Of a DNA stretch of 59,302 bases, positions 1,610 through 53,268 are shown piece after piece. The stretch lies in the IMG/VR virus record IMGVR_UViG_3300031416_000008, positions 1-59,302 of that record. One strand, written 5' to 3'. Within the stretch, counting starts at the first letter, position 1, and each line of letters starts with the position of its first letter. Both the position numbers and the translations under genes were made by a program. The stretch is from a virus. The notes below the pieces were generated by a model, which worked only from the letters and a program-made list of their open reading frames with translations, did no database searches and had not been told where the DNA came from.

Positions 1610-1896
1610 GGCTGATAACCCTGCTGCTGCGGCCAGTGGCGGCAGATCAGGCGCAATTTTTCTGCTTTGCGCTCGCGCTTCACTTCGGCGCGTTCCTGAT
1701 AAAAAGATGCGGGCAGAACGGTCGGAACAAAGCGTGGGGAGCGGCGTGTCCACGGCTTTCTTGCGGGCTTTGACGTTGGCGTTGACGAAGCGTCATCGTG
1801 GATCACGACAGCTGTGCTAGGAGCGCGCCTTATGCTAACTCCACCCAACAGCATTGCGCCGAGAGCCAAGACACTTCCAAATCCAAATCTACGCAT
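1606..1896 (-). CDS. Putative secreted small protein (signal-peptide-like N-terminus)
   Basis: N-terminus MRRFGFGSVLALGAMLLGG is hydrophobic. Translationally coupled to the downstream ORF. Confidence 0.45.
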   Translation of the reverse strand: MRRFGFGSVLALGAMLLGGVSIRRAPSTAVVIHDDASSTPTSKPARKPWTRRSPRFVPTVLPASFYQERAEVKRERKAEKLRLICRHWPQQQGYQP

Positions 1897-2497
1897 TGAT
1901 AATTTCTCTTTCGTCGTGTGAGGAAATGATGACGCGCACGAAATCGCTGATCCGATCTTTCAGGACGATGCGAGAGGCGCAGAGGGAAAGGTACGTGTAG
2001 GCGTTGCCGGTACCGCCATCGCTCATGCCTTCCAGAAAAGGCTTGGCTGTTATGGTCGAGATATCGACACCGATTGTGATAAGGCCGCGCAGCACTGCAT
2101 AAATGTTGCGATGATGCGGGGACTGGAAGTGCTGTGGTTGCAGATCGTGCACGAAATCCAGCGCGTAGCGGGGATCTATGAACATGGCGCCCAACACAGC
2201 ACGTTCTACATCATCGACTTCTGTGTCGATCAGGCGGGTGCTGATCAATGAAGCCGATTCAAGAAAGGCTTCCCAGTGCCGAATAACGTGTTGCATCGCT
2301 TCGGCTTCGCTCGCGGCGGATTTGGAAGCGTGCTCACACTGAGAGAGTTCCCAGCTTGTCCGCCATTGCCAAGCCTTCTGTTTGACCGGCGGGGTGATTT
2401 CACCAATCCGTAATGTGCCGGAATAGACATGGATGCGGGCATTCGAGCCCTTTGCAAGCCGACGAAAGGAAAGCGGCGCTTTGTTTTGAACGATCAT
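1889..2497 (-). CDS. DnaB N-terminal-domain-only protein
   Basis: C-terminal half ERAVLGAMFIDP..F.SPHHRNIY..L...G.DI..IT..GNAYTYL matches the DnaB_N pattern. No RecA/helicase domain. Start overlaps the XRE gene stop. Confidence 0.55.
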   Translation of the reverse strand: MIVQNKAPLSFRRLAKGSNARIHVYSGTLRIGEITPPVKQKAWQWRTSWELSQCEHASKSAASEAEAMQHVIRHWEAFLESASLISTRLIDTEVDDVERAVLGAMFIDPRYALDFVHDLQPQHFQSPHHRNIYAVLRGLITIGVDISTITAKPFLEGMSDGGTGNAYTYLSLCASRIVLKDRISDFVRVIISSHDEREIINA

Positions 2498-2715
2498 TAT
2501 TCGCCTGCCTGTCCATCGCGGCGAAACTCGATCAGTTGACCGGGCGTGCAATCCAACACAACGCAGAGCTTTTCCAGCAGTTCATAGCTGATTGTTTTCT
2601 GCTTGTTCTGAGTAATGCGGGAGAACTGCGTGCGCTTCATGTCAACCTTGTCGGCGAGGTCGCTCAAATTCATCCCCCGATCGGCGGCTATTGCCTTAAT
2701 CCGCAAGACAATCAT
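2497..2715 (-). CDS. XRE-family helix-turn-helix regulator (72 aa)
   Basis: MNLSDLADKVDMKRTQFSRITQNKQKTISYELLEKLCVVLDCTPGQL is a canonical Cro/CI-type HTH. Confidence 0.8.
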   Translation of the reverse strand: MIVLRIKAIAADRGMNLSDLADKVDMKRTQFSRITQNKQKTISYELLEKLCVVLDCTPGQLIEFRRDGQAGE

Positions 2716-4156: not shown

Positions 4157-5293
4157 TTAAACCTCCGCTGCCTTGGATTGGAAACTTGCGTGATGGTGGC
4201 CGTAAACGGCTTCCAGTGTTTTCGTGGACATGCCGAGCGAATGGCTGGCTTCCCACATGTCAACACCGGCACGCATGAGCCATGTCGCGCGGGTGTGGCG
4301 CATGGTGTGAGGCGTGACTTTTGAATCGAGCTTTGCAGCTTGAACTGCCTGCTTCCACGCATGGCGAATGTCAGCGATATCGGCGCCGTGCCAATGAATG
4401 ACGGTGTTGAAGAAATTAATCTGACTGCTGGTGCCTGCCTGATCAGCGATCCGCGCTTGATCGGCCATGTCGAGCTTTTTCCAGCGTTTCAAATGGAACA
4501 GGATTTTCCGGCCGAGTTTAACAGGCGGGCGGCGTTTCTTTGTTTCGCGCTGGCCTTCGGAACGGCGGTACATAATTTCTTCGTTCAGATCGATGTAGCC
4601 GGCGCGTTCATTCCGCTCCCACTGAACCGTAAGCAAAACATTCAAGCGCGAGCCCGTGTAAATGCCGAGCAGGATTAATCGCGCCATGTGGCGATTGACG
4701 CGCTGGCGATCCCGCGACCACTTGCCGTTTTTCCAACTCCAGCCGAGAGCGCCAGCAATCAGGCGAGCAGCTTCCGATTTTGTCAGCCAACGCGTGCGGG
4801 CAGGGGAGGGTTGGGGCATGTGTACGACTGGCAGAGAATCCACTGGGCCGTAATTCTTGTTCCAGAAATTCAGAGCCGACAGCAGGATTGCGAGCTCGCG
4901 ACGGATTGTGCCTGGCTTAACCGGACGAGATCCGGAAAGGCGGTGCGTCTCGTATTCCTTGCACGTTTGTTTCGTGATTTCGGAAAGAGATTTGCGGCCC
5001 CACCAACGAGACAAAGCTGTCAAACCATAAGCTGTTGATCGCGGGGCAACAGTTTCCGGCAGATGCTCTTGCGAATATGTCAGGAGAACTTGCGCTATCA
5101 CGATCCGGTCCGCCCGCTTGGTTTCGGTTGGGTTGGCGTGTTTGAGCGCGATATATTCCGCGAGGGCTTTTTCTGCTTGCTCAAGCTCATGTTCAGCGCA
5201 TCCAGTGCGCTTTGCGTAGGATCGATCGCGGATGATCCAGACACCTTCACTTCGGTTGAAGTAGAGACGAGGCGGGAGCGCTTTCTTAGGCAT
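4157..5293 (-). CDS. int: Tyrosine recombinase / phage integrase family
   Basis: C-terminal catalytic signature R...HTMRHTRATWL...LGMSTKTLEAVYGHH (R-H-R-Y), with an N-terminal SAM-like domain. Confidence 0.9.
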   Translation of the reverse strand: MPKKALPPRLYFNRSEGVWIIRDRSYAKRTGCAEHELEQAEKALAEYIALKHANPTETKRADRIVIAQVLLTYSQEHLPETVAPRSTAYGLTALSRWWGRKSLSEITKQTCKEYETHRLSGSRPVKPGTIRRELAILLSALNFWNKNYGPVDSLPVVHMPQPSPARTRWLTKSEAARLIAGALGWSWKNGKWSRDRQRVNRHMARLILLGIYTGSRLNVLLTVQWERNERAGYIDLNEEIMYRRSEGQRETKKRRPPVKLGRKILFHLKRWKKLDMADQARIADQAGTSSQINFFNTVIHWHGADIADIRHAWKQAVQAAKLDSKVTPHTMRHTRATWLMRAGVDMWEASHSLGMSTKTLEAVYGHHHASFQSKAAEV

Positions 5294-8419: not shown

Positions 8420-8701
8420 TTATCGGTTGAGTGTCGTAAAGCAGGTATCGAAGCTCGATAGCTCTAAGCATCGGTCCATAGCGGACGGTGCGCTAATCGA
8501 GTTCATGGCCGAGAGGCCGAGAAACAAAATCATTAAGATGAGAGTGACTACAACGTAGCCCATGCGGCGTTCTGTGCCAGCGTGAACTGCAAGTTGCTGC
8601 TCGTACAGTTCGATGAAATCTAACTCAGAATTTTGGGTGCAAGTTCCCGTTGGGCGTCCGCGATTTGACGCCGCCAATCCTCGGTCCATGACCATCTCCA
8701 A
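8420..8701 (-). CDS. Small membrane protein, first gene of the leftward arm
   Basis: One strong TM segment, YVVVTLILMILFLGLSAM. Sits next to the operator region. Confidence 0.45.
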   Translation of the reverse strand: MEMVMDRGLAASNRGRPTGTCTQNSELDFIELYEQQLAVHAGTERRMGYVVVTLILMILFLGLSAMNSISAPSAMDRCLELSSFDTCFTTLNR

Positions 8702-8735
8702 TTGACGATAAGTTCACCAGTTATGGGTTGCACTG

Positions 8736-8787
8736 TATAGGCAATAGACGATAGAATGCAACAAGAAATATCGGCAATAGCCGACAT
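8736..8787. promoter_or_regulatory. Two 20-bp dyad operator-like boxes (A 8736-8755, B 8768-8787)
   Basis: TATAGGCAATAGACGATAGA and ATATCGGCAATAGCCGACAT fit ATATnGGCnnnnGCCnATAT. Centres are 32 bp apart. Box A overlaps a CTATAC -10-like hexamer for leftward transcription. Confidence 0.55.
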
Positions 8788-8906: not shown

Positions 8907-9086
8907 ATGTTTTTGAGTATCGACCGAGTAACAGGACAGCACTTAACCGCCGAAAGCGATCCGCAGGGGCTTAGCGATGGAGACGGAGGAGGATTCCGGG
9001 AGCTCGCGCAATTTATTGAAGCGGTGACAAAAATGTCGCCACAAGAAAAGCGCCGAATCGGCGCTCTAATCGACAGTCTGAATTAA
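8907..9086 (+). CDS. Unlisted 59-aa ORF (just below the ORF-track cutoff)
   Basis: AGGAGG lies 6 nt upstream of the ATG. Hand translation: MFLSIDRVTGQHLTAESDPQGLSDGDGGGFRELAQFIEAVTKMSPQEKRRIGALIDSLN. Convergent with the repressor gene. Confidence 0.4.
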   Translation: MFLSIDRVTGQHLTAESDPQGLSDGDGGGFRELAQFIEAVTKMSPQEKRRIGALIDSLN

Positions 9087-9431
9087 TTAATCTTCGTTAT
9101 CAGCTGGGGCGGGGTGCTCTGGCACAATAGCGGATACCATGTCCCGTACGATCTCCCGGCGTTTCGGGTCTAAAGACTGGTATTTAAGGACGAGCTTTTC
9201 AGTTTCTTCGTCCAATTCAAGGCCGAAAACGAGCCACAAAGGGCTTACTTTAAAAGCCGTGGCCAACTCGACGAGTGAATCGATACTCGGTTCCTGCTTC
9301 TTTTGAAGGAGCGAATAGATATACGCGTGGTTCTTCCCCGCCAGTATTGACGCGGACCGCATGGTAAGACCTCGTTTCGCCATCAGCTCTTGAAGGCGTT
9401 GTCGCCACATCGAATTATCCATGCGCGACAT
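9087..9431 (-). CDS. CI-like XRE-family repressor (114 aa, no S24 peptidase domain)
   Basis: HTH GLTMRSASILAGKNHAYIYSLLQKKQEPSIDSLVELATAFKVSPLWL. Flanked on both sides by operator-like boxes. Confidence 0.8.
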   Translation of the reverse strand: MSRMDNSMWRQRLQELMAKRGLTMRSASILAGKNHAYIYSLLQKKQEPSIDSLVELATAFKVSPLWLVFGLELDEETEKLVLKYQSLDPKRREIVRDMVSAIVPEHPAPADNED

Positions 9432-9491: not shown

Positions 9492-9524
9492 GCCGATATT
9501 GTATATATCGGCTATTGCCTATAT
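9492..9524. promoter_or_regulatory. Operator box C (9505-9524, inverted orientation) plus GCCGATAT/ATATCGGC palindrome
   Basis: ATATCGGCTATTGCCTATAT is the reverse complement of the box A/B consensus. Lies in the divergent repressor/rightward intergenic region. Confidence 0.55.
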
Positions 9525-9560
9525 CTTCGCCACATTCCTCAGAACTGGTGAAGGTATCCG

Positions 9561-9743
9561 GTGGCCGCCAAACGTTCATTGACAGCCCAATTGCAAGAGA
9601 TTGACCGGATCATCGGCGAAAGCCGTTCGTCTAAGGATGCCGATTATCGGCGTGAAACACAGGAAAGCATACGCGACACGCTTCGATGGCTTCAAAAGCA
9701 TGAGCCCAAAATCAAAAGCCTTGTCGCAGGGCGCTCACGATGA
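9561..9743 (+). CDS. Hypothetical first gene of the rightward arm (GTG start)
   Basis: GAAGG lies 7 nt upstream of the GTG. ATGA overlap with the next ORF. Confidence 0.4.
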   Translation: MAAKRSLTAQLQEIDRIIGESRSSKDADYRRETQESIRDTLRWLQKHEPKIKSLVAGRSR

Positions 9744-10933: not shown

Positions 10934-11574
10934 CCGCTAAGCGAGCCCCCGCCAAGAAGGCGGCACCAAAACCAAAGCCCGCATCTCCTTCTAAGGCAAA
11001 GCAACACCAGCCTGCAGAGCTCAATCTGCAAATGTCACTCTTTGCTCAGGAATACATGAAGGACATGAATGCGACAAAAGCCGCTATTCGTGCTGGCTAC
11101 AGCGAGAAAGCAGCTCGTCAGCAGGGCAGTCGGTTGCTTGGCTATTACGTGGTGAACGAACGTGTGCAGGAATTATTTGAGGAATCGCAACGCGTTCTCA
11201 AAAAGAATGCAGAACAGTTTCTTACCGAGCTTCTGTCTTTCAACAGCTTCGACATGATTGAAATTTATCAGCCTGGCACCCGTTGTTTCAAGCCGATGGA
11301 AGAATGGCCGAAAATTTTCCGCACAGAGCTTCTGCAGTCCATCAAGATTTTCGAGAAAGACGAAATGGTGATGGGTGAAGATGGGAAAAAGCATAAGGAA
11401 AAAGTCGGTGAAATCGTCGAAGTCAAACTTGTCGATCGTTTGCGTCTGAAAGATTTCATCGGAAAGGCCATCGGAGCGTGGCGAGAAAAGAAAGAGGAAG
11501 AACGAACAGACGATCCAGTGGCCGAGCTTTGGCAGGATATTTCCGGGCGATCTTTTCAGCCGAAGGATGACTGA
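10930..11574 (+). CDS. terS: Terminase small subunit (Terminase_2-like)
   Basis: FAQEYMKDMNATKAAIRAGYSEKAARQQGSRLL motif. Sits immediately upstream of the large subunit. Confidence 0.8.
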   Translation: MTAKRAPAKKAAPKPKPASPSKAKQHQPAELNLQMSLFAQEYMKDMNATKAAIRAGYSEKAARQQGSRLLGYYVVNERVQELFEESQRVLKKNAEQFLTELLSFNSFDMIEIYQPGTRCFKPMEEWPKIFRTELLQSIKIFEKDEMVMGEDGKKHKEKVGEIVEVKLVDRLRLKDFIGKAIGAWREKKEEERTDDPVAELWQDISGRSFQPKDD

Positions 11575-11576
11575 CG

Positions 11577-13103
11577 TTGCACCCCTTCGATCAGTTGCCG
11601 CTTACAGACAAGAAACGACTGATTTCCGATCCCAACTGGCGGATACGGAACCTCTATTACATTCGAAATAAATTCGGCGACACGGTAATCTTTACGCCGA
11701 ACGAAGTGCAAGAATTATTTCTGGGCAACCTATGGTACCGGAACATTATCCCAAAAGCGCGTCAGCGTGGCTTTTCCACGCTTGTGCAGCTGATGATCCT
11801 TGATGCGTGCCTGTTTGTTGAAAATACAAAGGCAGCGATTATCGCTCTCGATCTAGATCTTGCTCTCGCTATCCGTAACGACAAGATCATGTTCGCCTAC
11901 GAGCGATTGCCCCAGCTCATTCTTAACCGCGTGCCGTTGAAGGTGGACAACGAAAAGCGCCTTGAATGGAAAAACGGTTCCGAGCTGATTATCGGCACAA
12001 CGGCTCGCGGACGCACGCTGTCATGGCTCCATGTCTCCGAGTACGGCGAGATTTGTGCAAAGAAGCCGGATCAGGCGAAGGAAATTCAGTCCGGTGCAAT
12101 GCCGGCCGCAGAATACGGTACCATCATTCTCGAATCCACGGCGCAAGGCTCCGATGGTGATTTTACTGTCAAAGTCATGCAGGCCAAGGCGGTTGAGGAA
12201 ACCGGCCGCAAACTTACGCGCAAAGATTTCCGCCTACATTTCGCTTCATGGTGGGATGCGCCAGAATATGAGCTCGACGACGCCGAGCACATAACAATCT
12301 CGCCGAAGGATCATGCATATTTCGACCGCATGGAAGCGGAGATAGGTCGCGAGATACCATTGCGCAAACGCGCCTGGTACGTTCAGCAGCGCGATGTGGA
12401 GTTCTCCGGCGATCAGGAAATGATGTGGTCGCAGTTTCCGACCACGCTTGAAGAAGCGTTTCAGCAATCAGCAGACGGCAAATTTCTTGCAGAAGTGCTG
12501 TCGCTGGCTCGCAGGCAGGGACGTATTGGCCAGCACAAATATGATCCCTCGCGCCCGGTCTACACGTTTTGGGATATCGGTACCGACGATGATACCGCTA
12601 TTTGGTTTTTGCAGGTTATCGGCAACAACTATTATTTTATCGATTATTTCGAGTGTAACGGAGAGGCACCGGCCTTCTACGCCGCAGAAGTGATGAGAAA
12701 GCCTTACAACTACGCGCAGCACTGGCTTCCTCATGATGGCGCGCATCGTCGTATCAGCACATTCGCGCTCGAAACATACGCCGATATGCTCGGCAAGCTT
12801 TCACTGAAGAATATTGAGATTGTCCCCCGTACTGACGACAAAGTGCAGGCGATCAATATGTTGCGTACAGAGTTCGGGCGCTATTACTTTGATGAGGAGA
12901 TGTGTGCTACAGGCATTAAGCATCTGGAGAAATACCAGAAGACGTGGAATTCTAGACATAGTGTGTGGACAAGCACTCCAGCACAAAATGGACACCAGCA
13001 CGCCGCCGACGCTATTATGCAAAAGGCACAGATCGGCGATGCGCTCGTAACGCAACACCAGCAGCGCCCACGGCGCTCACGCTCAGGAGGAATGGCCGTT
13101 TGA
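11577..13103 (+). CDS. terL: Terminase large subunit (TTG start)
   Basis: 508 aa at the expected position. N-terminal ATPase-like and C-terminal nuclease-like halves (WLPHDG..). Confidence 0.8.
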   Translation: MHPFDQLPLTDKKRLISDPNWRIRNLYYIRNKFGDTVIFTPNEVQELFLGNLWYRNIIPKARQRGFSTLVQLMILDACLFVENTKAAIIALDLDLALAIRNDKIMFAYERLPQLILNRVPLKVDNEKRLEWKNGSELIIGTTARGRTLSWLHVSEYGEICAKKPDQAKEIQSGAMPAAEYGTIILESTAQGSDGDFTVKVMQAKAVEETGRKLTRKDFRLHFASWWDAPEYELDDAEHITISPKDHAYFDRMEAEIGREIPLRKRAWYVQQRDVEFSGDQEMMWSQFPTTLEEAFQQSADGKFLAEVLSLARRQGRIGQHKYDPSRPVYTFWDIGTDDDTAIWFLQVIGNNYYFIDYFECNGEAPAFYAAEVMRKPYNYAQHWLPHDGAHRRISTFALETYADMLGKLSLKNIEIVPRTDDKVQAINMLRTEFGRYYFDEEMCATGIKHLEKYQKTWNSRHSVWTSTPAQNGHQHAADAIMQKAQIGDALVTQHQQRPRRSRSGGMAV

Positions 13104-13183
13104 CCCAATAGCTTCTTATTTACACGGCGGCGTTTGTGCTTCACAATAATTGAAGCTTCTCGCCCCGAACCGAGGAGCATTGA

Positions 13184-13615
13184 ATGTCATCGCCGGTTCT
13201 CGACCTGAGAGCGCGCGCCTTTATGTATGAGCGCGGCGACATCACCCTAATCGGATCGTGGTTACGCATGGGCGGAAATCTTCGCCCGTGTTTGGTTCTT
13301 ATCCGCTCCGGAGAGGAATACAGCGACCACACAGTGCCATGTGTCGTGACGCTTGATAAAGCTTGGATATGGGACGAAGACGAAGGCGACCCAAAAGAGG
13401 CCGCTCGTACGGCTGCGAACTTCGTAGAAAAGCTGCGGCTTACACACAGCCTGCAATCCTGCATCCGCATTGCATCGCTTATTCACGACCATCTGGACGA
13501 TCTTATTCAAATGCCTCCGTTCCCCCCGATGGACCGCGAGACCGTCGCATTCATCGAGCAGGTGAACAACAAGACGGGCAAGACAAAGCACATCGAGGTC
13601 AAAGACTATGTTTGA
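13184..13615 (+). CDS. Hypothetical protein between terminase and portal
   Basis: GAGGAG SD. 3' end overlaps the portal start. Confidence 0.55.
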   Translation: MSSPVLDLRARAFMYERGDITLIGSWLRMGGNLRPCLVLIRSGEEYSDHTVPCVVTLDKAWIWDEDEGDPKEAARTAANFVEKLRLTHSLQSCIRIASLIHDHLDDLIQMPPFPPMDRETVAFIEQVNNKTGKTKHIEVKDYV

Positions 13616-15908
13616 CCTCAACGCCCAGGACGGCTCCGTCCGCCGACAGAAATATGAATCGCCCATTCCTACCGGTGCCAATGCAAACGAGCCAGTCAGG
13701 GCACATAAGCTCGACAGCCCAAAAATGGTTCACCTGCACCGAATGCTTATGTCTATGTTCATTACTGAGCAGGATAGGCAGCACGAAAACCGGCGCGAGA
13801 TGGCGCAGGAAGAAGACATTTACGACAATGTGCAGTGGAACCCGGAAGACGCGGCCGTGCTGGAAAGTCGCGGGCAAATCCCTCTCGTTTACAACGTAAT
13901 CAGCGCGTCGATCGATTGGATCACAGGTTCGGAAAAGCGTACACGCACCGATTCCAAAGTGATGCCTCGTCGGAAGGAAGACTCCAAACCCGCGCAACGT
14001 AAAACGGAGCTGATGAAATATCTCGCGGATTCAAACCGCTCGAATTTCTCACGCTCACGCGCATTCGAGGACGCTGTTCGTGTTGGCCTTGGATGGATGG
14101 AAGATGGCTTTCAGGAAGATACCGACGGTGAGCCGCTATACACGCGCTATGAAAACTGGCGCAACATTCTGCATGATAGCGCATCGATGGAACCGGACCT
14201 TTCCGACGCCCGCTATATTTTCCGGATGCGTTGGTTCGACCTTGATGTGATCAAGCAGATATTCAAAGAGCGCGCTGGGATACTTCAAGGATCCGCGCAA
14301 ATGTCGCCTGGCGTAAATGGGCTAGACGAATTATCAGACGATATTACCGACCAACACGAAATCGAACTCGATCACAACAAGCATTTCGGTGCATCTAGCT
14401 CTACAATCGGTACTTACGTCCGGAGCCGCGTCCGCGTCATCGAAGCTTGGATACGCTTGCCCGCAGAAACCGAAAAAATAAGCGGCGGGATGTTCTCTGG
14501 TGAAATCTATGACCCTTTGTCACCAGCACATCAGGAAGCATTAGAGAGCGGCGAAGCTGAAATCGTGAAAAAGCCAACTATGCGTCTGCATGTTGCAATC
14601 TTCTCAACAGCGGGAATGCTATATTTCGGTCCGTCGCCATATCGTCACAACCAGTTTCCACTCACTCCCGTTTGGGGCTTCCGGCGCGGCAAGAATAATT
14701 TGCCATATGGGCTTATTCGGCGGCTGAAAGATATCCAGATCGATGTGAACAAGCGCGCTTCGAAGGCGCTGCATATCTTATCATCGAACAAAATAATCGT
14801 CGAAGAAGGTGCGGTCGAAGATTTGGACGAGCTCGCCGAGGAGGCAGCACGACCTGATGCTGTGCTCGTGGTCAAACCGGGCAAGCAGCTAAAACTTGAC
14901 GCAGATCGGGAGCTTGCAGAGGGGCATCTTAATTTGATGAGCCGCAGCATTGCGATGATCCAGCAAGCGTCGGGCGTCACCGATGAGCTTATGGGCCGCA
15001 AGACGAACGCCACTTCTGGACGCGCTATCATGGCCCGTCAGGAACAAGGTTCGCTCGCAACTGCCAAGTTCTTCGATAACCTCATGTTTGCAGAGCAGGT
15101 GCGCGGCGAAAAGCAGCTCGCAAATATCGAACAGTTCATGACGGAGAAAAAGGCATTCCGCATTACCAATCAACGCGGCACCCCGCAGTATGTCGATATT
15201 AACGACGGATTGCCTGAAAACGATATCGTCCGCACGAAAGCAGACTTCGTGCTTTCGCAGCAGGATTGGCAGGCAACGACGCGAGCAGCGAATTTCGCCG
15301 CCTTGATGGATACTATGCGTAATTTCCCACCAGACGTTACGCTTGCCATGCTCGATCTCATTCTCGAAACGTCCGATTTGCCAAACGTTGAAGAAATGGT
15401 GGCTCGCGTACGCCAGATTAACGGGCAGCGCGACCCTGACGCCGACCCTAACGACGTATCGCCGGAAGAACAGGCACGTCAGCAAGCGGCGGCGGAACAA
15501 GCGGCGCTTGAAAAAGAGCAGATTATGACCGCGCTTAGAAAAGTGGTTGCGGAAACGATGCTCAAAGAAGCTCAGGCCCAGTCGATCGCCACTAAGAACG
15601 TTGAGACGAAGGTGGACACGCAAGCGAAGGCACTGGCTGCTGCTACGACCGCAGTACAGGCCCCGCAGACGCTCCCATTGGCTGACAACATTCTGCACGA
15701 AAGCGGCTTTGTTTCACGAACAGAGACAGAAGATAGCGCGCGCGACGAGTTGCGCGCAGCGCAAACACAGGAAGCAGCCGCAGAACAGCAACAGCAGGCA
15801 CAACAGGAGATTATGGGGCAACCAGCAACGCCCGAAGGTGCAATGCCGCCCGCTCCTGAACATGCATCGCCGCTCCCACAAGGCTTGGAGGCCACCCCTC
15901 AGCAATAG
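13608..15908 (+). CDS. Portal protein (766 aa) with long Ala/Gln-rich C-terminal extension
   Basis: Size and position fit. EEDIYDNVQWNPEDAAVLESRGQIPLVYNVI is portal-type. Confidence 0.8.
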   Translation: MFDLNAQDGSVRRQKYESPIPTGANANEPVRAHKLDSPKMVHLHRMLMSMFITEQDRQHENRREMAQEEDIYDNVQWNPEDAAVLESRGQIPLVYNVISASIDWITGSEKRTRTDSKVMPRRKEDSKPAQRKTELMKYLADSNRSNFSRSRAFEDAVRVGLGWMEDGFQEDTDGEPLYTRYENWRNILHDSASMEPDLSDARYIFRMRWFDLDVIKQIFKERAGILQGSAQMSPGVNGLDELSDDITDQHEIELDHNKHFGASSSTIGTYVRSRVRVIEAWIRLPAETEKISGGMFSGEIYDPLSPAHQEALESGEAEIVKKPTMRLHVAIFSTAGMLYFGPSPYRHNQFPLTPVWGFRRGKNNLPYGLIRRLKDIQIDVNKRASKALHILSSNKIIVEEGAVEDLDELAEEAARPDAVLVVKPGKQLKLDADRELAEGHLNLMSRSIAMIQQASGVTDELMGRKTNATSGRAIMARQEQGSLATAKFFDNLMFAEQVRGEKQLANIEQFMTEKKAFRITNQRGTPQYVDINDGLPENDIVRTKADFVLSQQDWQATTRAANFAALMDTMRNFPPDVTLAMLDLILETSDLPNVEEMVARVRQINGQRDPDADPNDVSPEEQARQQAAAEQAALEKEQIMTALRKVVAETMLKEAQAQSIATKNVETKVDTQAKALAAATTAVQAPQTLPLADNILHESGFVSRTETEDSARDELRAAQTQEAAAEQQQQAQQEIMGQPATPEGAMPPAPEHASPLPQGLEATPQQ

Positions 15909-31938: not shown

Positions 31939-31973
31939 GCGCATGACGTGCTAACCGAGCAGGGTACGTCATG
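31939..31973 (+). promoter_or_regulatory. Late leader element 4
   Basis: Box at 31939-31951. CATGACGT (31942-31949) pairs with ACGTCATG (31966-31973). Confidence 0.6.
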
Positions 31974-34900
31974 GCTATTACACTGGATTCAAACGCTGAT
32001 CTTGATGCTTTCTTTGGCTTGGAAAAAGCCGGAAGCAATTCTCCCGCAACAGACAATCGGGAGACTGACGACAAACGTCCGATCCAGTCTGCATCTACAG
32101 AATCCTCGCGTGTGCCCCGTCTCCAACCTATCGGCATAAACTTTGACGCGCCAAAAGCTTCAAATCCGCCCGCCAGCGCGCCCGAAGCTTCAAAGGCTAC
32201 ACAGACTCAAGAAATCCCATCAGCCCCGCAGGCGACCCAGCCAGCGGAAATATCGGGTGTTTCCGCGCGTGATTGGAATGACGCCGTTAATACGATTATC
32301 GCAGAAGCCGGCGGCGACGGCCCTGTCGGTATGCTTGGCGTTGCGAGCACCATTCGCAACCGTGCAAATATTCGAGGCAAGACAATCGGCGATATCGTCC
32401 GCGCCCCAAGCCAGTTTGAAGGCTTTTATGCGCCGGGCCCTAAAGCCGTGGAAGCGCAGAACAATCCGCAGGTGCGCGCAGAAGCCGAGCAGATCCTTCG
32501 TGGTGTTCTAACCGGAGAATTAAGCGATCCGACAAATGGTGCTGACCACTTCCACGCCAACGGTATTAATCCGAAGTGGGCCAGCTCCATGCCGGAAACG
32601 GCGCGAATTGGTGGCCATGTTTTCTACAACTCCAAGCAGGAAGGTGCACCGCGTCAGGTCGCGTCGATGGACCCCGCTATCGGGCTTGATGAGCCGCGCG
32701 GCAATCGTCGCGGTCTTGCGAACCTCGTTCCCGAACAAAAGGAACCGGAAAACACGAAAACCGGCAGCTTGGCGTTCGTCAACCCCGGTCAGGAAAAGAT
32801 CAACCCCGCATTCGCCTCCGTTCTGCAGGACGTTTCCGCTGACATTGGCAAGGGCCTTGTCATCACTTCCGGATACCGATCGCCTACGCATCGGGTGGAA
32901 GCAGCGAAGAAAAAGCCCGGTCAGCATTCACATGGTACAGCTGTCGATATAAGCTTGAAGGGTATGAACGGCCAGCAGCGTTTCGATCTTGTGCAATCGT
33001 TGAAAGCGCGTGGCGTTCGCCGTTTTGGCACCTACTCAAACTCTCCAGATATCATCCACGTCGACATGCTTCCGATGAAGGATTCGAAGGATGGCTTCTG
33101 GTACATGCATAATAAGTCGGTCAATAACATGGGCGGTGCTCCAGATTGGCTAAAAGCAGCGCGCGCAACGCGCGTGAAGCGATATGATGTGCCGCAGGGC
33201 AAGGCTATCGAGGCCGGCGCGGATTTCCGTTTTGATGGCGATCCAGAACCAGTTGCGCAGAAAACACCAGCAACTCCAGAAGTGGAAAGCACTGAGCAGC
33301 CGACCGAAGCTGATCCGATCGACGCGCGCCTCGAAGAACTCAATAAGTCAGAGCCCGGCAAGTACCAGGCAATGACTGAAGACGAATATGCCAAGTGGCG
33401 TGAGGAGTGGGAAGCCAATCAGCCCGGTATTCTACAAGACGTCGCGCGTATGGTCGCCGCTGGGGCTGTCACAGGTACCGCATCAATCATTAAAGGTATT
33501 GGTCGCCTTGATGCAGCCTTCAATGCGAACGTCCTTAATCCACTTTTCGGCACAGAATTTAGCGAAAGCAACGAATACGACGTGCCTGCCGGTTGGGTTG
33601 AGAAGTACGGCGAGGGCATTAAGAAGGGCGTTTCGCAGGCGACCAAAGACGCTATCGAAACCAGTACGCCTGATGGCGATCTATTGGACCCGTCAACTTG
33701 GACGCTCGGTACTAACCCATCGGCAAGGGGCCTTGTTGCCCTAGGGGCTGACGTTTTCGGCTCAATGGTTCCAGTGGTCGCGGCAGCTGTAGCGACCGGC
33801 GGTACGGGCGGATTTATTGCAGGCGGTGCGCAGGGCGCAGGCGGTGCAGAAGATCGGGCCAAGCAGATCATTGATGAGCTCGCAGCAGAGCCCGGCGCGC
33901 TCGAAACTCAGTCTGCTTATTTCCGTGAGCAAATTGCATCCGGAAAATCCCGCGAAGAAGCGATCAAAGCCACTAAGGACGCGGCAGCGAACATTGCGTC
34001 TGTATATGCAGCACCAATTGCGGGTGTTGGTGGCGTACTCACCGGCAAAATTGTTCACCCAGCCACCAATATTCTCGCAAGCAAAGCACTGCCCGCTCGC
34101 ATTGCAGGCCGCGCAGTCGCCGGCGCGTTGGAAGAAGGTTCGCAGGAAGCGCTTGAAACCGTAGGCGCTAACGCTGGCGTCAATCAGGCGATCGGTACTG
34201 ACCTCAACGTCACCGACGGTACATTCGGCGACTTTGTTCTCGGTGCCATGGCGGGCGGCGCTACCGGTGCTGCAGGTGGCGTCACCAGCCGCAGATCAGC
34301 ACCCCAGAGCGAAGCAGCCACGGAAACTCCAGCGGCGGCTCCAGCTTCCGACCCAGTACAGACAACGGCTCCAGAACCACAGGACACACCACAGCGCAAA
34401 GGCCCGCTTTCGCGCGCGTTCGAGGAATCCGCGTCACGTACTGATCTCGAATACGTCGTCAACGATCCAGATATCGATGGTAGCGGGCCCGGCGAAATTC
34501 ACGGTCAGACTGTTCAGATATCGGCCAATCAGGATCGGGTGCCAGCAGGGATGCGCCGCGTCATCGATCAGAGCGGCGTAGAACGCGTCATTGGCGATCG
34601 GGTACTGATGCCTTTGACACAAGCGCAGGAAGCCGGAATCCGTCCAGCCGATCGCACTACTGCGACAAGCGTCCAGTCAGGTAAAGGCGCTCCAACCGTC
34701 GGGTCAACAGTTAATGTTACTTTGCCAGACGGCAGCTCCATTCGCGGCACAGTTGATAGTTACGCCGATGGTGAAGCGGTTATCACTGATGAAGTCGGCG
34801 AAGTGTTTCAGGTTCCGGTTTCGTCTATCGCCGCTCTAGAGGCCGCAGCAGCTGTGAAACCGGGCCAGCTTCCAACCGATGCACTGCCGGAGCGTGATGC

Positions 34901-37900
34901 AGACGCGCAGGACGAGTTGCCAGCGCAACCACCAATGGCTTCCGAAACCACTGTCGAAGAAGACGTTGCGCCCGTCGATCGGCAGAAGAATATTGTTTCC
35001 GCTGAAAACGCGCCCAAGGTTGGCCAGAGCGTTATTGTAAATGCGCCTGGCTTAAAGCGGGTTACCGGCAAGATCGAACAGTACGTTTACGAGGACGAAG
35101 AATACCAGGCTATCGTTCGCGAGAGCGGCGGCATGACAATTCAGGTTCCGATCGAGCATCTGTTTGTCGATTCTACGACCAATAAGCAGGCCGATGCGGA
35201 GGAGTTGCGCAGGAATCCGCCTGTTGATCGTCCTGACATTGACCCCAACGAACCGCGTGTCCGTAAATTTGGAGACAAGGCGGTCCGTCTGCCCGATGAT
35301 GAGTCACAGCGTATATTCGATCTTGGTCAAAACCGGGCGATGGCCAAGCGCCTGCTGGGTACGTCTGAACTTGATAAAGATCGAGCAGCTGTGCCGGCAC
35401 AAAAAGCGCTGGCTGATGAACTTGGTATTTCTTTTGAAGACGCCGGCAAGCTGGCTGATGATTATCGGTACCGCGTCGAAAAAGCCGGTAAGCAGGCACG
35501 ATCGAAACTACCTGTCGAAATGCACTCAGTTAATCCCGTCATGCTCGATCGGATGCGCAAGCGGGTAGAAAGTCAGACAACAGCCGAGCCGGCGCCCGCA
35601 GTCACAGAAGTTTCGGTTGAAGCTGCTGAACCGGTATCGAAAGTCGAAACGCCACAGGTAACGGGCACCGACACAGAGACATGGTACAATTCCATGTCAG
35701 AAACAGATCGTGCCGCCACGCTTGCCAAATCGGGCATTAAGCGCTCGCCGAAAGCACCATTCGATAAGCTGTCGCCGAAAATCCAGCAGACGTTGAATAA
35801 GCAGCGTCAGGTTGAAAGCGAAGCACAGCAAGCCCCGATCGACATTGCGGCCGTACAAGCAGCGACGCATCCGGACAACGACATTGCGGAACCGACGCTC
35901 GCGCAGAAAGAAGCCGGAAATTATGCCAAGGGCCATGTGCGTTTAGGTGGCATGGATTTGTCGATCGAAAATCCAGCGGGCTCCGAACGCAAAGGCGTAG
36001 ATGCCACCGGCAAAGAGTGGTCCACAACGATGCAGGGCCACTACGGCTACATCAAAGGCACCATTGGCCGCGACAAAGACCACATCGACGTTTTTGTTAA
36101 GCCGGGCACCGCTGACGTTTCCGACACAGCGCCGGTTTTCGTGGTTGACCAGAAAAACCCAGACAATGGCCGATTTGACGAACATAAGGTCATGATCGGT
36201 TATGATAGCCAGCAGGAAGCCGAAGCAGCATATTTGGCGAACTATACGCCTGGTTGGAAAGGCATGGGCGACGTTACAGAAACAAGCCTTGCCAACTTCC
36301 GGAAATGGACCAAAGATGGCGACACCACAAAAGCTTTCGCTCCGAAGTGGTTTGGCACGCGAGAAAAGGCAGATGCCTACGTCGCGAAGAACAACCTTTC
36401 AGATACGCACTCTGTCGTAGAAAACGGCAAGCGCTTTGAAGTCCGTCAGGCTTCCGACAATGCTGCACAAACTGCAAAACCGGCGAATAATATTCAAAAT
36501 CGTTCCAACAACGATTTGGAACGCTTGAAAAACGATTACCGCCGCCAAGTTGCCGAGGCTCCTTTCGCTGACGTTTGGGGATCAGATCGCGAGCCCGTTT
36601 ATGACGCACTGTCACAGCTGGCGGAAAAATCGCCGCTAAAAGACAGGGAGATTGTTTACGCGGTACGTGAAAATGCCAGTGATGCGGACCTCTTGAGTGC
36701 AGCTGCTCGGACGTTCGGCGTTGGCGGCGCTGGCGGCAACAAGTACATGGTTGAAACCCGCGAAGGGCCGACTGTCACTGTCACGTTAGAAAAAGATAGT
36801 GGGCCAGAAAAGATTGTCCTCAAGGGCAAAAAGCTGGCTGACACTCTGCGGCGCGAATTTACCCGTACCGTAGAGGAAATGCGTGAAGATGCGATACGCG
36901 CGGGAAAAACGCGCGCATTCATCGACAAGAAAAAGGCGGAACACAGAGAAAAGACTGCGAGCAAAAATAGCAGTGCGTTGGTGGGTGAGCCGCTTCCCAC
37001 GCGCGGTGTTGCGCCCGCCAATATAGGTAGTGACGGCAATACCTACGTCGGAAAGCCCGGCGGTGTTCATTTCGAGATTAAAAGGCCTGACGGCGTGGAA
37101 TGGACCGATATCGGTTTTGTAAATCCATCCGGTCAATTCCTTGATCGCAAACAAGCGTTTGAATGGGTCGAGCAGAATGAACAGCGTGTCCGCCCCTCAG
37201 ACAATATGGACGCATCCCTCGATGCGCTCGATTATCGTGAGCAGGTTCCAGAGCGAGTGCGAAAGTCGGGCAAAAAAAACGCAGAAAAGCTCGACACCCT
37301 AATCGACACTGGTCAGCTGACCGCCGCATCCGATTGGGGCGCTTCCAATAAATTAGTTTCACGCGATCGAGCAGATGAAATACGTAAGAAGCTCCGCGCG
37401 AAACTGAATGGTCAGATAAATTCGGGCATTGATCCGGAAATTCTAGCGCTGGGAACCGAGCTCGCGGCATTCCACATCGAGGCCGGTGCGCGTAAGTTTA
37501 CAGACTTTGCACGCGCTGTTGCTGTAGACATGGACGCAAGCATTGAAAAGCTTCGCCCATTCCTACGGGCGTGGTATAACGGCGCGCGCGACATGATGGA
37601 GGATTCCGGGCTTGATATTTCAGGCACCGATGATGCCAATGCTGTAAAGAGCGCACTCGCAACGCTAAAGGACGTGGACGATGGAAGCCTTTCAAAACTG
37701 GAAACGAGAAGCGGAGCTGCATTGGAAGCAGTTTCAGCCGAACCGTTACAAGGAACTGAAAGCGGGCGGAAAGCTCGATCAGGCGTTGACCGAAGCGGCC
37801 AATCAGACAGCACTGGAAATGAACCAGCTGACGGAAAGCGGCTTCCAGCCGGACGAAGCGTTTCAGATGGTGAGACAGAACTATCTGTTCCCGCCAGAGG

Positions 37901-40900
37901 AAGGCAGCGAAATGAGCGTACCAGAAATGGGCCAGACCTCTTTGAGCGAGCAGATGACAAACGCAGTCCGGAAGGGCAGCAGGACAATGGACCTGTAGGC
38001 GAAAAGCCGCTTTCCGACTCCGTAAATCCCGAGAAACGTGTATCGCCGGACGATTCAGCAGCCACACCTGCACATAATCGTCCGGATGGGTTCACCATTA
38101 CGGATGAAGATGCAATCGGCGCTGGCGGACCAAAAACCAAGTTCCGCAATAACGTTGATGCCATCAAGCTTCTTCGAAAGCTCACAGAAGAAGGTCGGAC
38201 GGCGAGTCACGCAGAACAGAAGGTTCTTGCGAAATGGGTAGGCTGGGGCGGTTTGCAGCAAGCATTCGTGCGTCCGGACGGTTCCAAGGCCAAAGGCTGG
38301 GAAAAAGAAGCTGATAGTCTCAAGGAACTGCTCACGCCCGAAGAATACCGCGCGGCAGAAGCCTCAACCCGCAACGCCCATTACACCGCACCTGAAATCA
38401 CCAAAGCTATTTGGAAGGTTGCGCAGCGGCTTGGTTTCCGTGGTGGTCGCGTGCTTGAGCCTTCCGTTGGTTCAGGTAATTTCCTCGGACTGGCTCCGGG
38501 AGAACTGAAACACCGCGCGCAGTTTACCGGCGCGGAATTAGACCATATTACGGGTGGCATCGCGCAGCAGCTCTATCCGGCAGCTAACATCAAAGCTCCT
38601 GTGGGTTTTCAGGAGTTGCAGATCCCGGACAATTATTTTGAGTTGGCCGTTGGCAATCCGCCATTTGGCAGTGAACGCCTTTACGACGCGCAGCGCAAGG
38701 AAGCTGCGAAATTCTCCATACATAATTACTTCTTTGCAAAATCCGTCGACACATTGAAGCCGGGCGGAATTTTGTCGATGGTAATCACAAACTCATTCCT
38801 TGATGCGGCAAAGTCCGCAGCACGTCGATACATCGCGGAACGTGCCCGGCTCGTCGGTGCAATTCGTCTGCCGAACAACGCCTTCCTTGCGAACGCTGGA
38901 ACGGAAGTCACTACCGATATCGTCGTTCTTCAAAAATACCCAGAAGGCACTGCACAGGCGGACAAGGATTTCTCTTGGGTTGACGTCGGCAATTATCGTG
39001 ACGCGCAAGGGCGCGACACGCCGCTTAATCAGTATTTTGTCAGCAATCCCGATATGATGCTGGGCGACTTCGGCCGCTACGGCACAATGTATGGCCCAGA
39101 GCAGCCCGCGCTTATTTCGCGTAACGGCGATAATCTTTCGTCCCTGCTCGACAAGGCTATTAATTCGTTGCCGGCTGAAATTATGCCGACACGAACGATT
39201 GAGGAAATAACAGAGTCCGCGGTAAAGCGGGAACTCGATCCCGTCGCTGTGCCCGTCGGCTCTTTTGTTACCGACGCGGATGGGAATATTTCGGTGCGAG
39301 CCCCAGACCTGTTGGGGGAAACACGCGTTATCCCGCGTGCTGATATTACCGGTAAAGATAAGCAGCGCATTTCCGGACTTGTGGCGCTTCGCGACATATT
39401 CACCAACTTGCGCCGCGCTCAGATCGATCCGAACAGCACTGACGCTCAGTTGAATGCGCAGCGCCAATCGCTGAACGAAGCCTATGATGCTCTGACGAAA
39501 GAGTTTGGCCCGATAAACAGCGAAATGAACCGCCGGGCATTTCAAGATGATCCAACATGGCCGCAAGTTTCGGCGTTGGAAATTTCCTATGACAAAGGCC
39601 TCACACGTGAAGCCGCTAAAAAGACTGGCGAAACACCACGTAAACCGAGCGCGGTAAAGGCTCCAATATTTGAGCGCCGCACGCAAGAACCATACAGCCG
39701 TCCGCAGACTGCAAACACCGCAAAAGACGCGCTTGCTATTGCTATGTCGGAATCGGGCTTTGTGGACATGGCTCGCGTTCTTGATCTTTACCGCAAGCCT
39801 GTTTCAGAAGTTGTCGCAGAGCTCGGCGATCAAATCTACATGGCACCGGATGGCGGATTTCAAACCGCCGATATTTATCTATCCGGAAATGTGAAACAGA
39901 AGCTCGCCCGCGCCGAAGAAGCAGCAAAGCTTGATCCAGCCTTTGAGCGAAACGTTTTGGCGCTCCGTGACAAAATTCCGGCCGACATTGATCCAGTTGA
40001 TATCGATGTAAAGGCTGGCGCACCTTGGATACCGGGTTCCGATATCGCTGATTTTATCCGCGATACGCTTGAGACAAGTCATGCCAGGGCAATTTATTCC
40101 CGTGGAACGGCTCGTTGGGAGCTAGATGCGGGACGAGCAAGCGACGTTGCACAGGCGAGGTGGGGAACACCTGATGCATCTGCACGTCAGGTTGTTGAAG
40201 CGGCCCTGAATGCGCGCACAATAACAATCAGCCATAAAAATGCAGACGGTTCCGTCACGGTAGACGAAGCCGCGACTGACGCTGCAAATCAGAAGGTGGA
40301 AGCGGTTAAAAACGAGTGGAAACGCTGGATTTGGGACAACGATGCCCGCCGCGAAAAGCTTTCCCGTCTCTACAACGATACGTACAACACCCACGTCGAT
40401 ACCGTCTATGATGGTTCGCATTTGATTTTGCCAGGCAAAGTCAGCGATGACGTTGTTGAATTACGTCCGCATCAGAAATCATTTATCTGGCGCGTTTTGC
40501 AGTCGTCGACCACTCTTGCCGACCATACAGTCGGTGCCGGTAAAACGTTCGCGGCGATCGGTGCGGTTATGGAACTTCGCCGCACCGGGCAGGCAAAAAA
40601 ACCGATGGTCGTCGTGCCTAACCATCTTGTGCAACAGTGGTCAGCTGATTTTATCAAGTTGTATCCGGGCGCAAATATTCTCGCGGCGACCAAGAAAGAT
40701 TTTGAAGCTGGCAACCGGAAGCGTTTCTTTGCGCGCGTCGCAGCAGGTGACTATGACGCCGTTGTGGTTGCACATTCGTCTTTCGGGCTCATCGGTGTTG
40801 ATCCGATGTTTGAGCGCGACTTCCTGCAAATGCAGGTGGCCGATATTGAAGACTCCATTCGCACGCTTGAGGAAGCGGAAGGCAAATCCAGCCGTAGCGT

Positions 40901-50553: not shown

Positions 50554-51585
50554 TCAGTCTCCCGCTTTATCCGTTTCTGATTTCCGGAAGGCCTCATAGA
50601 GCCCTTCCAAATTGTTCGATATCCATTCGCCGAAGGCACGGCCGTTCGGGTTGGCAAAATCCATCGAAAGTGTTTTTCCTTTTGTCTTTGCGACGACGCG
50701 CACAGAACGATCGGATGGCACCCACTGTTTACTCGGAATTGATTTTACCAAAACCGGCTTTGGCGCGGTCAACGACGTAAGCAGCAACGTGAGCCTCTGG
50801 TCGGTGTCAGCTTCGGAAAATTCCTTGCTCTCAATAAAGGCAAACGCTACAGCGCGGTTTGCATCTTCGCGCAGGTATTGGGCAAGCTTATACCAAGTGT
50901 CGCGCCCATAGTTTGGAGCGGCACCAACAGCTCTTACGACTTTTTCAGGAATATCGTTCGCTACTGAAAGCAATTTCGACGTGTTAGTTTTGTCGATCGA
51001 GAGTGAAGCCATTACGACTTCGCGGTCGTACCCGCTGTCGATCAAGTTTTTCGCAAACATCGCCTTTTCGATGAACGACAGGTTTGCGCGAGCGCTGTTC
51101 TCCTGCCCTTGAGCTATAACATGATCCCGGTCAGACAAATTTTTAACAACTGCCCTGACGGGTCTTTGCAAAGCTTTGGCAGCACGCAAGCGACGATGGC
51201 CAAAAACGACCATGTAGCGCCCTTCCCTTTCGGGATGAGGGCGAACCAAGATTGGGGAGTCCTGTCCCCTCTCCCGCACTGCTTCCACCAGCTCGGCAAA
51301 TGCTTCACCGTCAGTTCCTAACCGATCCTCAATAAACGATACGTCAACGAGGTCTGTTGCCAGCTCGACAACGGTGGAACCTTCGAGAAGTTTAGCCTCA
51401 ATGTCCTTGGCGGCTTTTGCCTGCTCCGCAAGATCATCAATCGATTTTGTTATGGCTCCGAACGCACCACGCGAGCGGTTACGTTCCATCGCTGGAGAAA
51501 GCTTCTCAGGAGCGTCGTTTTGTTCAGAGTTGACGGCCGTCAACTTTCGCTCAGTGAGGGATGATAAAAGATTTTTTCGCGACAT
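50554..51585 (-). CDS. repB: RepB (ParB-family partition protein of repABC-type replicons)
   Basis: MSRKNLLSSL N-terminus and ParB box LVRPHPEREGRYMVVFGHRRLRAAK. TAATG overlap with repA. Confidence 0.9.
   Translation of the reverse strand: MSRKNLLSSLTERKLTAVNSEQNDAPEKLSPAMERNRSRGAFGAITKSIDDLAEQAKAAKDIEAKLLEGSTVVELATDLVDVSFIEDRLGTDGEAFAELVEAVRERGQDSPILVRPHPEREGRYMVVFGHRRLRAAKALQRPVRAVVKNLSDRDHVIAQGQENSARANLSFIEKAMFAKNLIDSGYDREVVMASLSIDKTNTSKLLSVANDIPEKVVRAVGAAPNYGRDTWYKLAQYLREDANRAVAFAFIESKEFSEADTDQRLTLLLTSLTAPKPVLVKSIPSKQWVPSDRSVRVVAKTKGKTLSMDFANPNGRAFGEWISNNLEGLYEAFRKSETDKAGD
51529..51544. promoter_or_regulatory. Intragenic parS palindrome inside the repB 5' coding region
   Basis: GTTGACGGCCGTCAAC encodes KLTAVN of RepB. 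Confidence 0.7.
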
Positions 51586-52907: not shown

Positions 52908-53066
52908 AAAGTTGACGGCCGTCAACTTTCGCCGTTGGGCCCCCTTTTGAGGAAAAGTTGACGGCCGTCAACTTTGGTCGTTGGGCCCCTTTTTGAGGAA
53001 AAGTTGACGGCCGTCAACTTTGGTCGTTGGGCCCCTTTTTGAGGAAAGTTGACGGCCGTCAACTTT
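52908..53066. repeat. parS array: four 45-46-bp tandem units, each carrying GTTGACGGCCGTCAAC
   Basis: Palindromes at 52911, 52957, 53003 and 53048. They fit the repABC parS consensus GTTnnCnGCnGnnAAC. Spacers are near-identical. Confidence 0.85.
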
Positions 53067-53268
53067 TGTCCGCGAGGTCAGGATTTACGACCTGAAAGCC
53101 TTGTGCACTGGGGTTTTCGATTACCTGCTTTGCTGTCGCCGCCATTCCTTGACCGTCCGCGAACTGGACGTAGCAAAGCCTGTCAGTCCAGCTGGGAAAG
53201 TAAGCCTCGCACGGCTGCTTATGTCGCGCGTGGCCGGGTCGATTATAGATGAACGGCGTCGCGCTCAC
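53059..53268 (-). CDS. Hypothetical small protein, last gene of the early arm
   Basis: ATGA overlap with the upstream ORF. Confidence 0.4.
   Translation of the reverse strand: MSATPFIYNRPGHARHKQPCEAYFPSWTDRLCYVQFADGQGMAATAKQVIENPSAQGFQVVNPDLADKS

Follow-up and report, generated by a model that had tools for sequence, protein, structure and literature searches.

The window, the whole stretch of viral DNA analysed here, comprises 59,302 nucleotides (IMG/VR record IMGVR_UViG_3300031416_000008) and carries an exact 127-bp direct repeat at its ends (positions 1-127 are identical to 59176-59302), and the junction of the two ends is bridged by two independent metagenome contigs. The end repeat and the bridging contigs together show that the window represents an entire circular element, 59,175 bp in length. 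The element shares approximately 75% nucleotide identity with Ochrobactrum phage POI1126 (Namazuvirus), and approximately 75% also with a closed 59-kb plasmid of Brucella pseudintermedia (NZ_CP137607); its host type is Brucella/Ochrobactrum-type bacteria. It combines the three properties that define a phage-plasmid, namely phage genes, a repAB/parS partition locus, and a circular form, and genes for terminase, endolysin, and an N4-gp56-type capsid protein are seen in the window or in annotations of its relatives. We conclude that the window is a phage-plasmid related to POI1126. POI1126 is induced by mitomycin C, and its prophage has been demonstrated to be a plasmid; plasmid functions were assigned to two partition genes only, and the description includes no repressor operators (PMC5492332).

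Two divergent arms depart from a switch region at 8.7-9.5 kb. On the rightward arm, genes for terminase, structural proteins, and lysis follow almost at once. The leftward arm leads through methylases, a tyrosine recombinase, and early genes to repA, repB, and a winged-helix gene. The tyrosine recombinase (4157-5293, minus strand) is 79-87% identical across all relatives despite the plasmid state, and could be a dimer resolvase or an integrase. Early genes include one for an HNH endonuclease (57826-58461, minus strand; PHROG E=3.5e-50) and one for a 220-aa protein with a weak match to DnaB-like helicases (1889-2551, minus strand; E=2e-9). A single open reading frame of 5,042 aa occupies 31971-47099 on the plus strand; annotation of its relatives' counterparts reads DarB-like antirestriction or PLxRFG domain protein, and these homologues bear methylase and helicase domains.

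The switch region and six operator-like boxes

The predicted immunity repressor gene (9087-9431, minus strand) encodes a 114-aa HTH_3/XRE protein of DicA/RstR-like type (Pfam HTH_3, 29.1 bits against a cut-off of 23, E=1.1e-6), which also matches transcriptional repressor families of NCBIfam and PHROG; database gene calls start the protein at Met8 (107 aa). Family searches with the 114-aa protein gave HTH families only and no S24 (LexA-like) autocleavage domain, and induction therefore probably requires another factor. Judged by its sequence, the protein would work like CI, yet it is no orthologue of λ CI. Two small conserved open reading frames on the plus strand, of 59 aa (8907-9086) and 60 aa (9561-9743), gave no matches in family searches. 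The former lies between box B (see below) and the repressor gene, on which it converges, and the latter opens the rightward operon; a Cro-like or an anti-repressor function is conceivable for either of them.

The original prediction described a family of four dyad operators, A-D, three of them bracketing a CI-like repressor gene and the fourth in the replication leader. All four sequences are present where it placed them, with the qualification that the best dyad register for A and D lies one base to the left of the coordinates it gave (8735-8754 and 50298-50317). Its membership count was too low: the family comprises at least six sites, two of which (C2 and D2) had been missed. On one side of the repressor gene are box A (8735-8754; GTATAGGCAATAGACGATAG), a putative operator at the leftward (early) promoter, and box B (8768-8787; ATATCGGCAATAGCCGACAT), a putative operator with the highest matrix score of all; the first gene of the leftward operon (8420-8701, minus strand; from the open-reading-frame list, with homologues in relatives) lies downstream of B and A. 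On the other side are box C2 (9480-9499; TAATCGTTTTTTGCCGATAT), a weaker putative operator, and box C (9505-9524; ATATCGGCTATTGCCTATAT), a putative operator that separates the repressor gene from the rightward (late) operon. The repB–rep spacer contains box D (50298-50317; GTATAGGCAAGAGACGATAG) and, 74 bp from it, box D2 (50372-50391; CTGTCGTTAGATGCCGATAA), a second, weaker putative operator. The A-B spacing is 33 bp and the C2-C spacing 25 bp in every element with a recovered switch, and the bracketing of the repressor gene that had been proposed is borne out: the gene is of HTH_3 type, the layout is that of OL/OR operators, and the spacings are fixed.

The boxes differ from the dyad consensus ATATNGGCNNNNGCCNATAT by no mismatch (C), one mismatch (B), and three mismatches (A and D). 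By itself, the loose consensus is weak evidence: a scan of the window yields five matches with at most three mismatches against 1.79 expected, a number equalled in 5 of 100 shuffles. The identity between A and D is strong evidence. That the two agree at 20 of 21 positions, as first reported, holds (GTATAGGCAA[T/G]AGACGATAGA), and such a match has an expectation of 0.00 and occurred in none of 100 shuffles. The separation of 41 kb quoted for the two copies is correct on the linear window; on the circle, A and D both lie on the leftward arm, 17.6 kb apart by the short way. Among 2.9 million viral contigs, TATAGGCAANNGACGATA occurs only in one related IMG/VR element (3300014048, hereafter I48), twice, at that element's own A and D.

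A half-site matrix trained on switch-region boxes only, with D left out, ranks sites across the window in the order B, C, A, C2, D, a site at 8692-8711, and D2, so that D is fifth and D2 seventh of 59,283 positions. Just seven of these positions score at least as high as D2: five belong to the switch, and the other two fall within the repB–rep spacer, which is 508 bp long. With a matrix built from the switch boxes of one relative only, D still ranks sixth. D, and D2 especially, are imperfect dyads. The site at 8692-8711 (half-site TTATCGTCAA) has the sixth-best matrix score of the genome, shares bases with both the ribosome-binding site and the start of the first leftward gene, and is poorly conserved among relatives. 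A scan for LexA boxes (GAAC-N7-GAAC) found no enrichment (3 sites against 2.1 expected).

A further short motif, AACTGGTG (CACCAGTT on the opposite strand), occurs six times in the window against 1.2 expected, at 8715-8722, 9543-9550, and 50233-50240, and also at 29601, 47210, and 49118. Followed along the direction of transcription, it comes 12 nt after box A in the five lineages whose A regions were aligned, and approximately 57 nt after box D in all of the repB–rep spacers that were aligned or inspected.

Within the A/B pair, a −35-like TTGCCG in box B stands 18 nt upstream of a TATCGT in box A. The leftward promoter may accordingly be read as TTG[C/A]CG inside B, 18 nt from TATCGT inside A, or, alternatively, as TTGCAT-16-TATACA; both readings are inferences from sequence. 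The CTATAC end of box A is preceded, at a distance of 15-16 nt, by a conserved TTGCA[T/A]. The original proposal that A and D share this CTATAC as a −10 element is not supported at D, where nothing −35-like is present at a matching distance in any group of relatives.

The replication locus and the repB–rep spacer

The partition genes repA (51585-52820, minus strand; Pfam AAA_31/CbiA, with AAA_31 E=2.6e-36) and repB (50554-51597, minus strand; Pfam RepB PF07506, E=3.9e-18, and ParB_N) are accompanied by an array of four copies of the palindrome GTTGACGGCCGTCAAC with a 46-bp period upstream of repA (52908-53067), each in the extended form AAAGTTGACGGCCGTCAACTTT, and by a fifth copy of the core GTTGACGGCCGTCAAC at the repA/repB junction (51529-51544). 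All five are perfect copies and fit GTTNNCNGCNGNNAAC, which we take to be the repABC parS consensus.

Directly after the repB stop codon lies a candidate for the canonical repABC-type antisense RNA, ctRNA (50506-50550, plus strand; Rfam RF00489, ctRNA_p42d). At gathering thresholds, an Rfam search of the window gave no matches; a permissive search with RF00489 (gathering score 50) gave sub-threshold scores of 27.4 bits for the window, 36.1 for POI1126, and 45.3 for I48, with the match at the same position and on the same strand in each of the three elements. A promoter-like hexamer, CTTGAC, is present nearby at 50457, and a weak match to the S-element at 50397-50463 on the minus strand. From its sequence features, this ctRNA/S-element region looks like a retained repABC control unit upstream of an initiator that is not RepC. 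Beyond it, the spacer contains D2, D, a conserved AACTGGTGGAGA, a mini-ORF, and a second antisense unit, in that order, followed by rep. The conserved mini-ORF has three codons (ATGAAGGCATAA; minus strand, 50221-50210) and its own Shine-Dalgarno sequence. The second unit is a candidate antisense RNA opposite the rep leader (50130-50215, plus strand), with a promoter-like TTGCAA at 50104, a hairpin, and a terminator hairpin with a T-run that was found by a terminator scan; its fold z-score is −3.46, and its structure is conserved, with three compensatory pairs.

The replication initiator candidate, Rep (49290-50045, minus strand), is a winged-helix, λ-O-like protein of 251 aa with a conserved GTG start at 50045. 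It matches the PHROG family 'replication initiation O-like' (E=6e-7), and in Pfam it has a weak match to GntR winged helices only and no match to the RepC family. Homologues occur on small alphaproteobacterial plasmids, and in two Agrobacterium plasmids the homologue is preceded by a CopG-family gene. Box D had been placed upstream of a winged-helix gene in the repC position: the location is correct, with D in the repB–rep spacer 253 bp, and D2 327 bp, upstream of the GTG, and the gene is not a RepC homologue. Because the RepC family is absent and λ-O-like matches are found instead, we do not class the locus as a repABC replicon; by sequence, it is better described as a hybrid in which repAB and a candidate ctRNA of the repABC family are joined to a λ-O-like initiator. 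No second replication initiator was recognised among the early genes searched. With a single recognised initiator, plasmid and lytic replication probably both depend on this Rep, and its control by the phage repressor would then make sense.

A candidate rep promoter can be placed at D (50311-50339, minus strand), with −35 TTGCTG at 50339-50334, a 17-nt spacer, and −10 TATCGT at 50316-50311, inside the box. The corresponding geometry in relatives is TTGC[A/C]G-17-TATCGT, TTTACT-17-TATCGT, or TTTACG-17-TATCGT, according to the group (W, P, and X, respectively, as defined below). The assignment of TTGCTG-N17-TATCGT as the rep promoter is inferential: the match to consensus is just 7 of 12, an E. 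coli-type promoter scan called no promoter at D, and a scan with an alphaproteobacterial consensus did not flag the sequence. A small open reading frame spanning box D in the window and in the relative Brucella sp. 21LCYQ03 was discarded as a candidate gene, its frames differing relative to the box in the two elements.

Conservation and co-variation of boxes D and D2

The relatives, for which data are paired or partial, fall into three sets. The W group comprises the window, I48, two Logan contigs, Brucella sp. 21LCYQ03, and Brucella sp. TWI432; the P group comprises POI1126, the Brucella plasmid, three IMG/VR contigs, and one NCBI contig; and the X lineage is represented by contigs of 2.5-4.5 kb only, which lie outside the switch region and encode a Rep that is 57% identical. 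Rep identity is 75-77% within W and 45-57% between groups.

Box D is conserved in 11 of the 11 relatives' spacers examined. It forms an island of conservation: between the window and I48, 18 of 20 positions are identical at D, compared with 5-12 of 20 in the flanks. Matrix scoring of seven spacers gave D and D2 as the top two matches in each, and mismatch scans find both boxes in four further spacers. From D2 to D the distance is exactly 74 bp in all five W-group elements that were measured; six P-group spacers have 95 bp, and the X lineage has 52 bp. These distances correspond to approximately seven, nine, and five helical turns, respectively. D2 is conserved in matrix score and position, not in sequence.

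The two halves of D behave differently. The promoter-proximal half, CTATCGTC, is constant. The left half is group-specific. In W it is GTATAGGCAA in four of the six elements and ATATAGGCAA in a fifth, and both of these are found among W switch half-sites and are absent from P; in P it is ATATCTACTA, which is found among P switch half-sites and is absent from W. The W-type left half scores 11.6 by a W matrix and 2.3 by a P matrix, and ATATCTACTA scores 13.6 by the P matrix and 5.5 by the W matrix. The recognition helix of the repressor changes between the same groups, being GKNHAYIYSLLQKK in W and GKSPSYLHSLLTRN in P and near-constant within each, whereas the helix of the Rep winged-helix domain is invariant across groups. 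The variable half of D thus tracks the recognition helix of the repressor and not the invariant helix of Rep. Shared ancestry of linked modules could account for part of this co-variation, since no element found breaks the link between repressor group and Rep group; a search of IMG/VR, GTDB genomes, JGI metagenomes, and a set of 5.8 billion proteins recovered further elements but no natural recombinant that separates repressor type from Rep type.

Every computational test (matrix ranks, conservation of D, and co-variation) agrees with the original proposal of one operator family at the switch with a copy in the replication leader. We consider it probable that A, B, C2, C, D, and D2 are operators of the element's own HTH repressor, which would limit synthesis of the initiator from D in the lysogen.

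The boxes could be genuine operators and D nevertheless be occupied by another protein, for instance a lytic repressor of Cro type or a protein encoded by one of the small neighbouring open reading frames, or the repressor at D could act as a roadblock to read-through from repAB. The two small open reading frames flanking the switch (8907-9086 and 9561-9743), both without family matches, supply candidates for such a protein, lambdoid Cro proteins use the operators of CI as well, and the promoter scans found no consensus promoter at D. We regard this possibility as unlikely: Cro of φKO2 leaves the OL sites at repA unbound (PMC4997575), the switch in the HTH_3 recognition helix matches the switch in operator sequence, and the geometry of a TT-hexamer, 17 nt, and TATCGT is kept in three diverged groups.

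It is less probable still that D and D2 are sites of the initiator itself, used for autoregulation or as origin iterons, with a secondary likeness to the switch boxes. The two boxes lie directly upstream of the rep gene, and the type of D (W or P) follows the Rep sequence group as well as the repressor group. What separates the two candidate binders, on an argument from sequence, is the contrast between a variable repressor helix and an invariant Rep helix, the latter being the same in W and P where the left half of D is different. Moreover, boxes of the same family flank the repressor gene at a distance of 17.6 kb, D forms part of no iteron or repeat array, and three plasmids with a homologous Rep (38-41% identity) contain no such boxes.

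That A and D are scars of recombination or duplication (integrase targets or products of gene conversion) and have no regulatory role at rep is very improbable. The element does encode a tyrosine recombinase, A and D are direct repeats, and their agreement at 19 of 20 positions, seen both in the window and in 21LCYQ03 with a centre that differs between these two elements, looks like conversion; elsewhere, A and D agree at 13-17 of 20 positions. The near-identity may reflect gene conversion or matched affinity. However, direct repeats 17.6 kb and 41.6 kb apart would, on recombining, resolve the genome into two circles, D persists in the lineages in which it resembles A at only 13-17 positions, D has a partner, D2, at a helically phased spacing, and the boxes are dyads of an operator family.

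The weakest alternative, in which RepB would bind the boxes as scattered centromere (parS) sites, draws on their palindrome-like, dispersed character, on the adjacency of one of them to repB, and on the scattered SopB centromere sites of phage N15, and is effectively refuted by the five perfect GTTGACGGCCGTCAAC copies elsewhere (four upstream of repA and one at the repA/repB junction) and by the retention of W-type D in relatives with a different RepB or a different parS. The two relatives in question are I48, in which RepB is 43% and RepA 66% identical (I48 positions 11318-13645), and TWI432, in which the parS core is GTTGACTGCAGTCAAC. I48 has no parS of GTTGACGGCCGTCAAC type near repA. The partition cassette is exchanged among close relatives, and the rep leader, box D, and the initiator stay together; a modular joint is apparent between the ctRNA/S-element region and D2.

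Proposed control of the initiator by the immunity repressor

According to the hypothesis that the six boxes are operators of the phage repressor, a dimeric HTH repressor, the product of 9087-9431, would bind all six, and would control the divergent leftward (early) and rightward (late) operons through A/B and C2/C in the manner of lambdoid OL/OR. In the repB–rep spacer, D and D2 would bracket a dedicated rep promoter, the candidate with −10 TATCGT inside D, such that D covers its −10 element and start site and D2 lies approximately 75 bp upstream, in phase. In the lysogen, repressor at D, probably bound cooperatively with D2, would limit transcription of the initiator gene, and the two candidate antisense RNAs of the spacer would add copy-number feedback. 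The upstream candidate ctRNA may attenuate read-through from repAB; with such attenuation, rep would need a promoter of its own. Upon inactivation of the repressor, the same initiator would be de-repressed for lytic replication.

That one repressor might control plasmid replication in addition to the lytic promoters, as originally suggested, is supported by the sequence tests, and is not new in kind: in phages N15 and φKO2, the repressor CB occupies OL1 and OL2 at the promoter of repA, with repression of that gene and a lower prophage copy number as the outcome (PMC4997575). The element analysed here resembles N15/φKO2 in having, besides its switch operators, a repressor-family operator pair (here a predicted one) upstream of a rep gene. 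It differs in several respects. N15 is a linear enterobacterial plasmid in which OL lies directly between cB and repA, whereas here 17.6 kb separates the predicted rep operators from the switch; the operators of N15 span 16 bp (TA-N10-TA), whereas the boxes here are 20-bp dyads; and here, unlike in N15, the predicted operators lie inside a repAB-derived cassette, between two candidate antisense-RNA units. RepA of N15 is a large initiator, unlike the small λ-O-like winged-helix protein found here.

In its switch, the element resembles λ in that the gene of a dimeric HTH repressor (here a predicted one) lies between groups of dyad operators at divergent promoters, and it differs from λ in a repressor without S24 domain, in an extra, predicted operator pair at a remote replication gene, and in a rightward operon that leads almost directly into packaging genes. 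Phage P1 is likewise a circular plasmid-prophage on which one repressor, C1, has dispersed operators, one of which controls a replication function; the P1 operators are asymmetric 17-mers, and the one at a replication function controls the lytic gene repL, not the plasmid replicon. Here, in contrast, the sites are dyads and the target is apparently the only initiator recognised.

The replication locus shares with repABC replicons (p42d and pTi) the partition proteins RepA (ParA) and RepB, parS sites fitting GTTNNCNGCNGNNAAC, and a candidate antisense ctRNA after repB. It departs from them in the replacement of RepC by an unrelated winged-helix initiator with its own leader and a second, candidate antisense RNA, and in the presence of a predicted operator pair for a phage repressor in the spacer. 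To our knowledge, the inputs to repABC replicons are autorepression by RepA/RepB, the ctRNA, and, in pTi, TraR and VirG, and a phage repressor is not among them. In the literature searched, we found no description of repressor operators in a repABC-type phage-plasmid. As judged from sequence comparison, what sets the element apart from N15/φKO2 is the remote position of the predicted rep operators, a repAB/ctRNA context, a candidate second antisense RNA, a small λ-O-like initiator, a helically phased operator pair, and the host group.

The arrangement also recalls cop–rep modules of pMV158 type (CopG plus antisense RNA), in its candidate antisense RNA opposite the rep leader and in the predicted action of a transcriptional repressor on an upstream promoter. 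Where small Agrobacterium plasmids encode a homologous Rep, the position equivalent to the mini-ORF is the end of a CopG-family gene (...GGGCATAAAA, then a hairpin); here, in contrast, there is no cop gene, only the three-codon mini-ORF is left, and the repressor would come from the phage switch. We take this resemblance as a lead suggested by analogy, not as a test. A more speculative proposal, which we consider possible rather than probable, is that the phage repressor serves as the Cop-type repressor of a composite replicon, in which looping between D2 and D would shut the rep promoter, one initiator would serve both low-copy replication in the lysogen and lytic replication, and the partition cassette would be freely swappable.

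A phage-plasmid has to accommodate two copy-number regimes, with one or a few copies in the plasmid state and hundreds in lytic growth, and N15/φKO2 is the clearest worked example we found of an immunity repressor that sets the level of an initiator. If repressor control of rep as proposed here is correct, the same logic arose in an unrelated, podovirus-type phage-plasmid of Brucella/Ochrobactrum and other Hyphomicrobiales, and was grafted into a repABC-derived cassette that is otherwise under the control of RepA/RepB and antisense RNA. The model would offer a wiring diagram for the POI1126 group, for which no plasmid replication functions had been found beyond two partition genes (PMC5492332), and the 114-aa repressor, the 20-bp operators, and the 0.5-kb leader may provide parts for repressor-responsive copy-number vectors in alphaproteobacteria.
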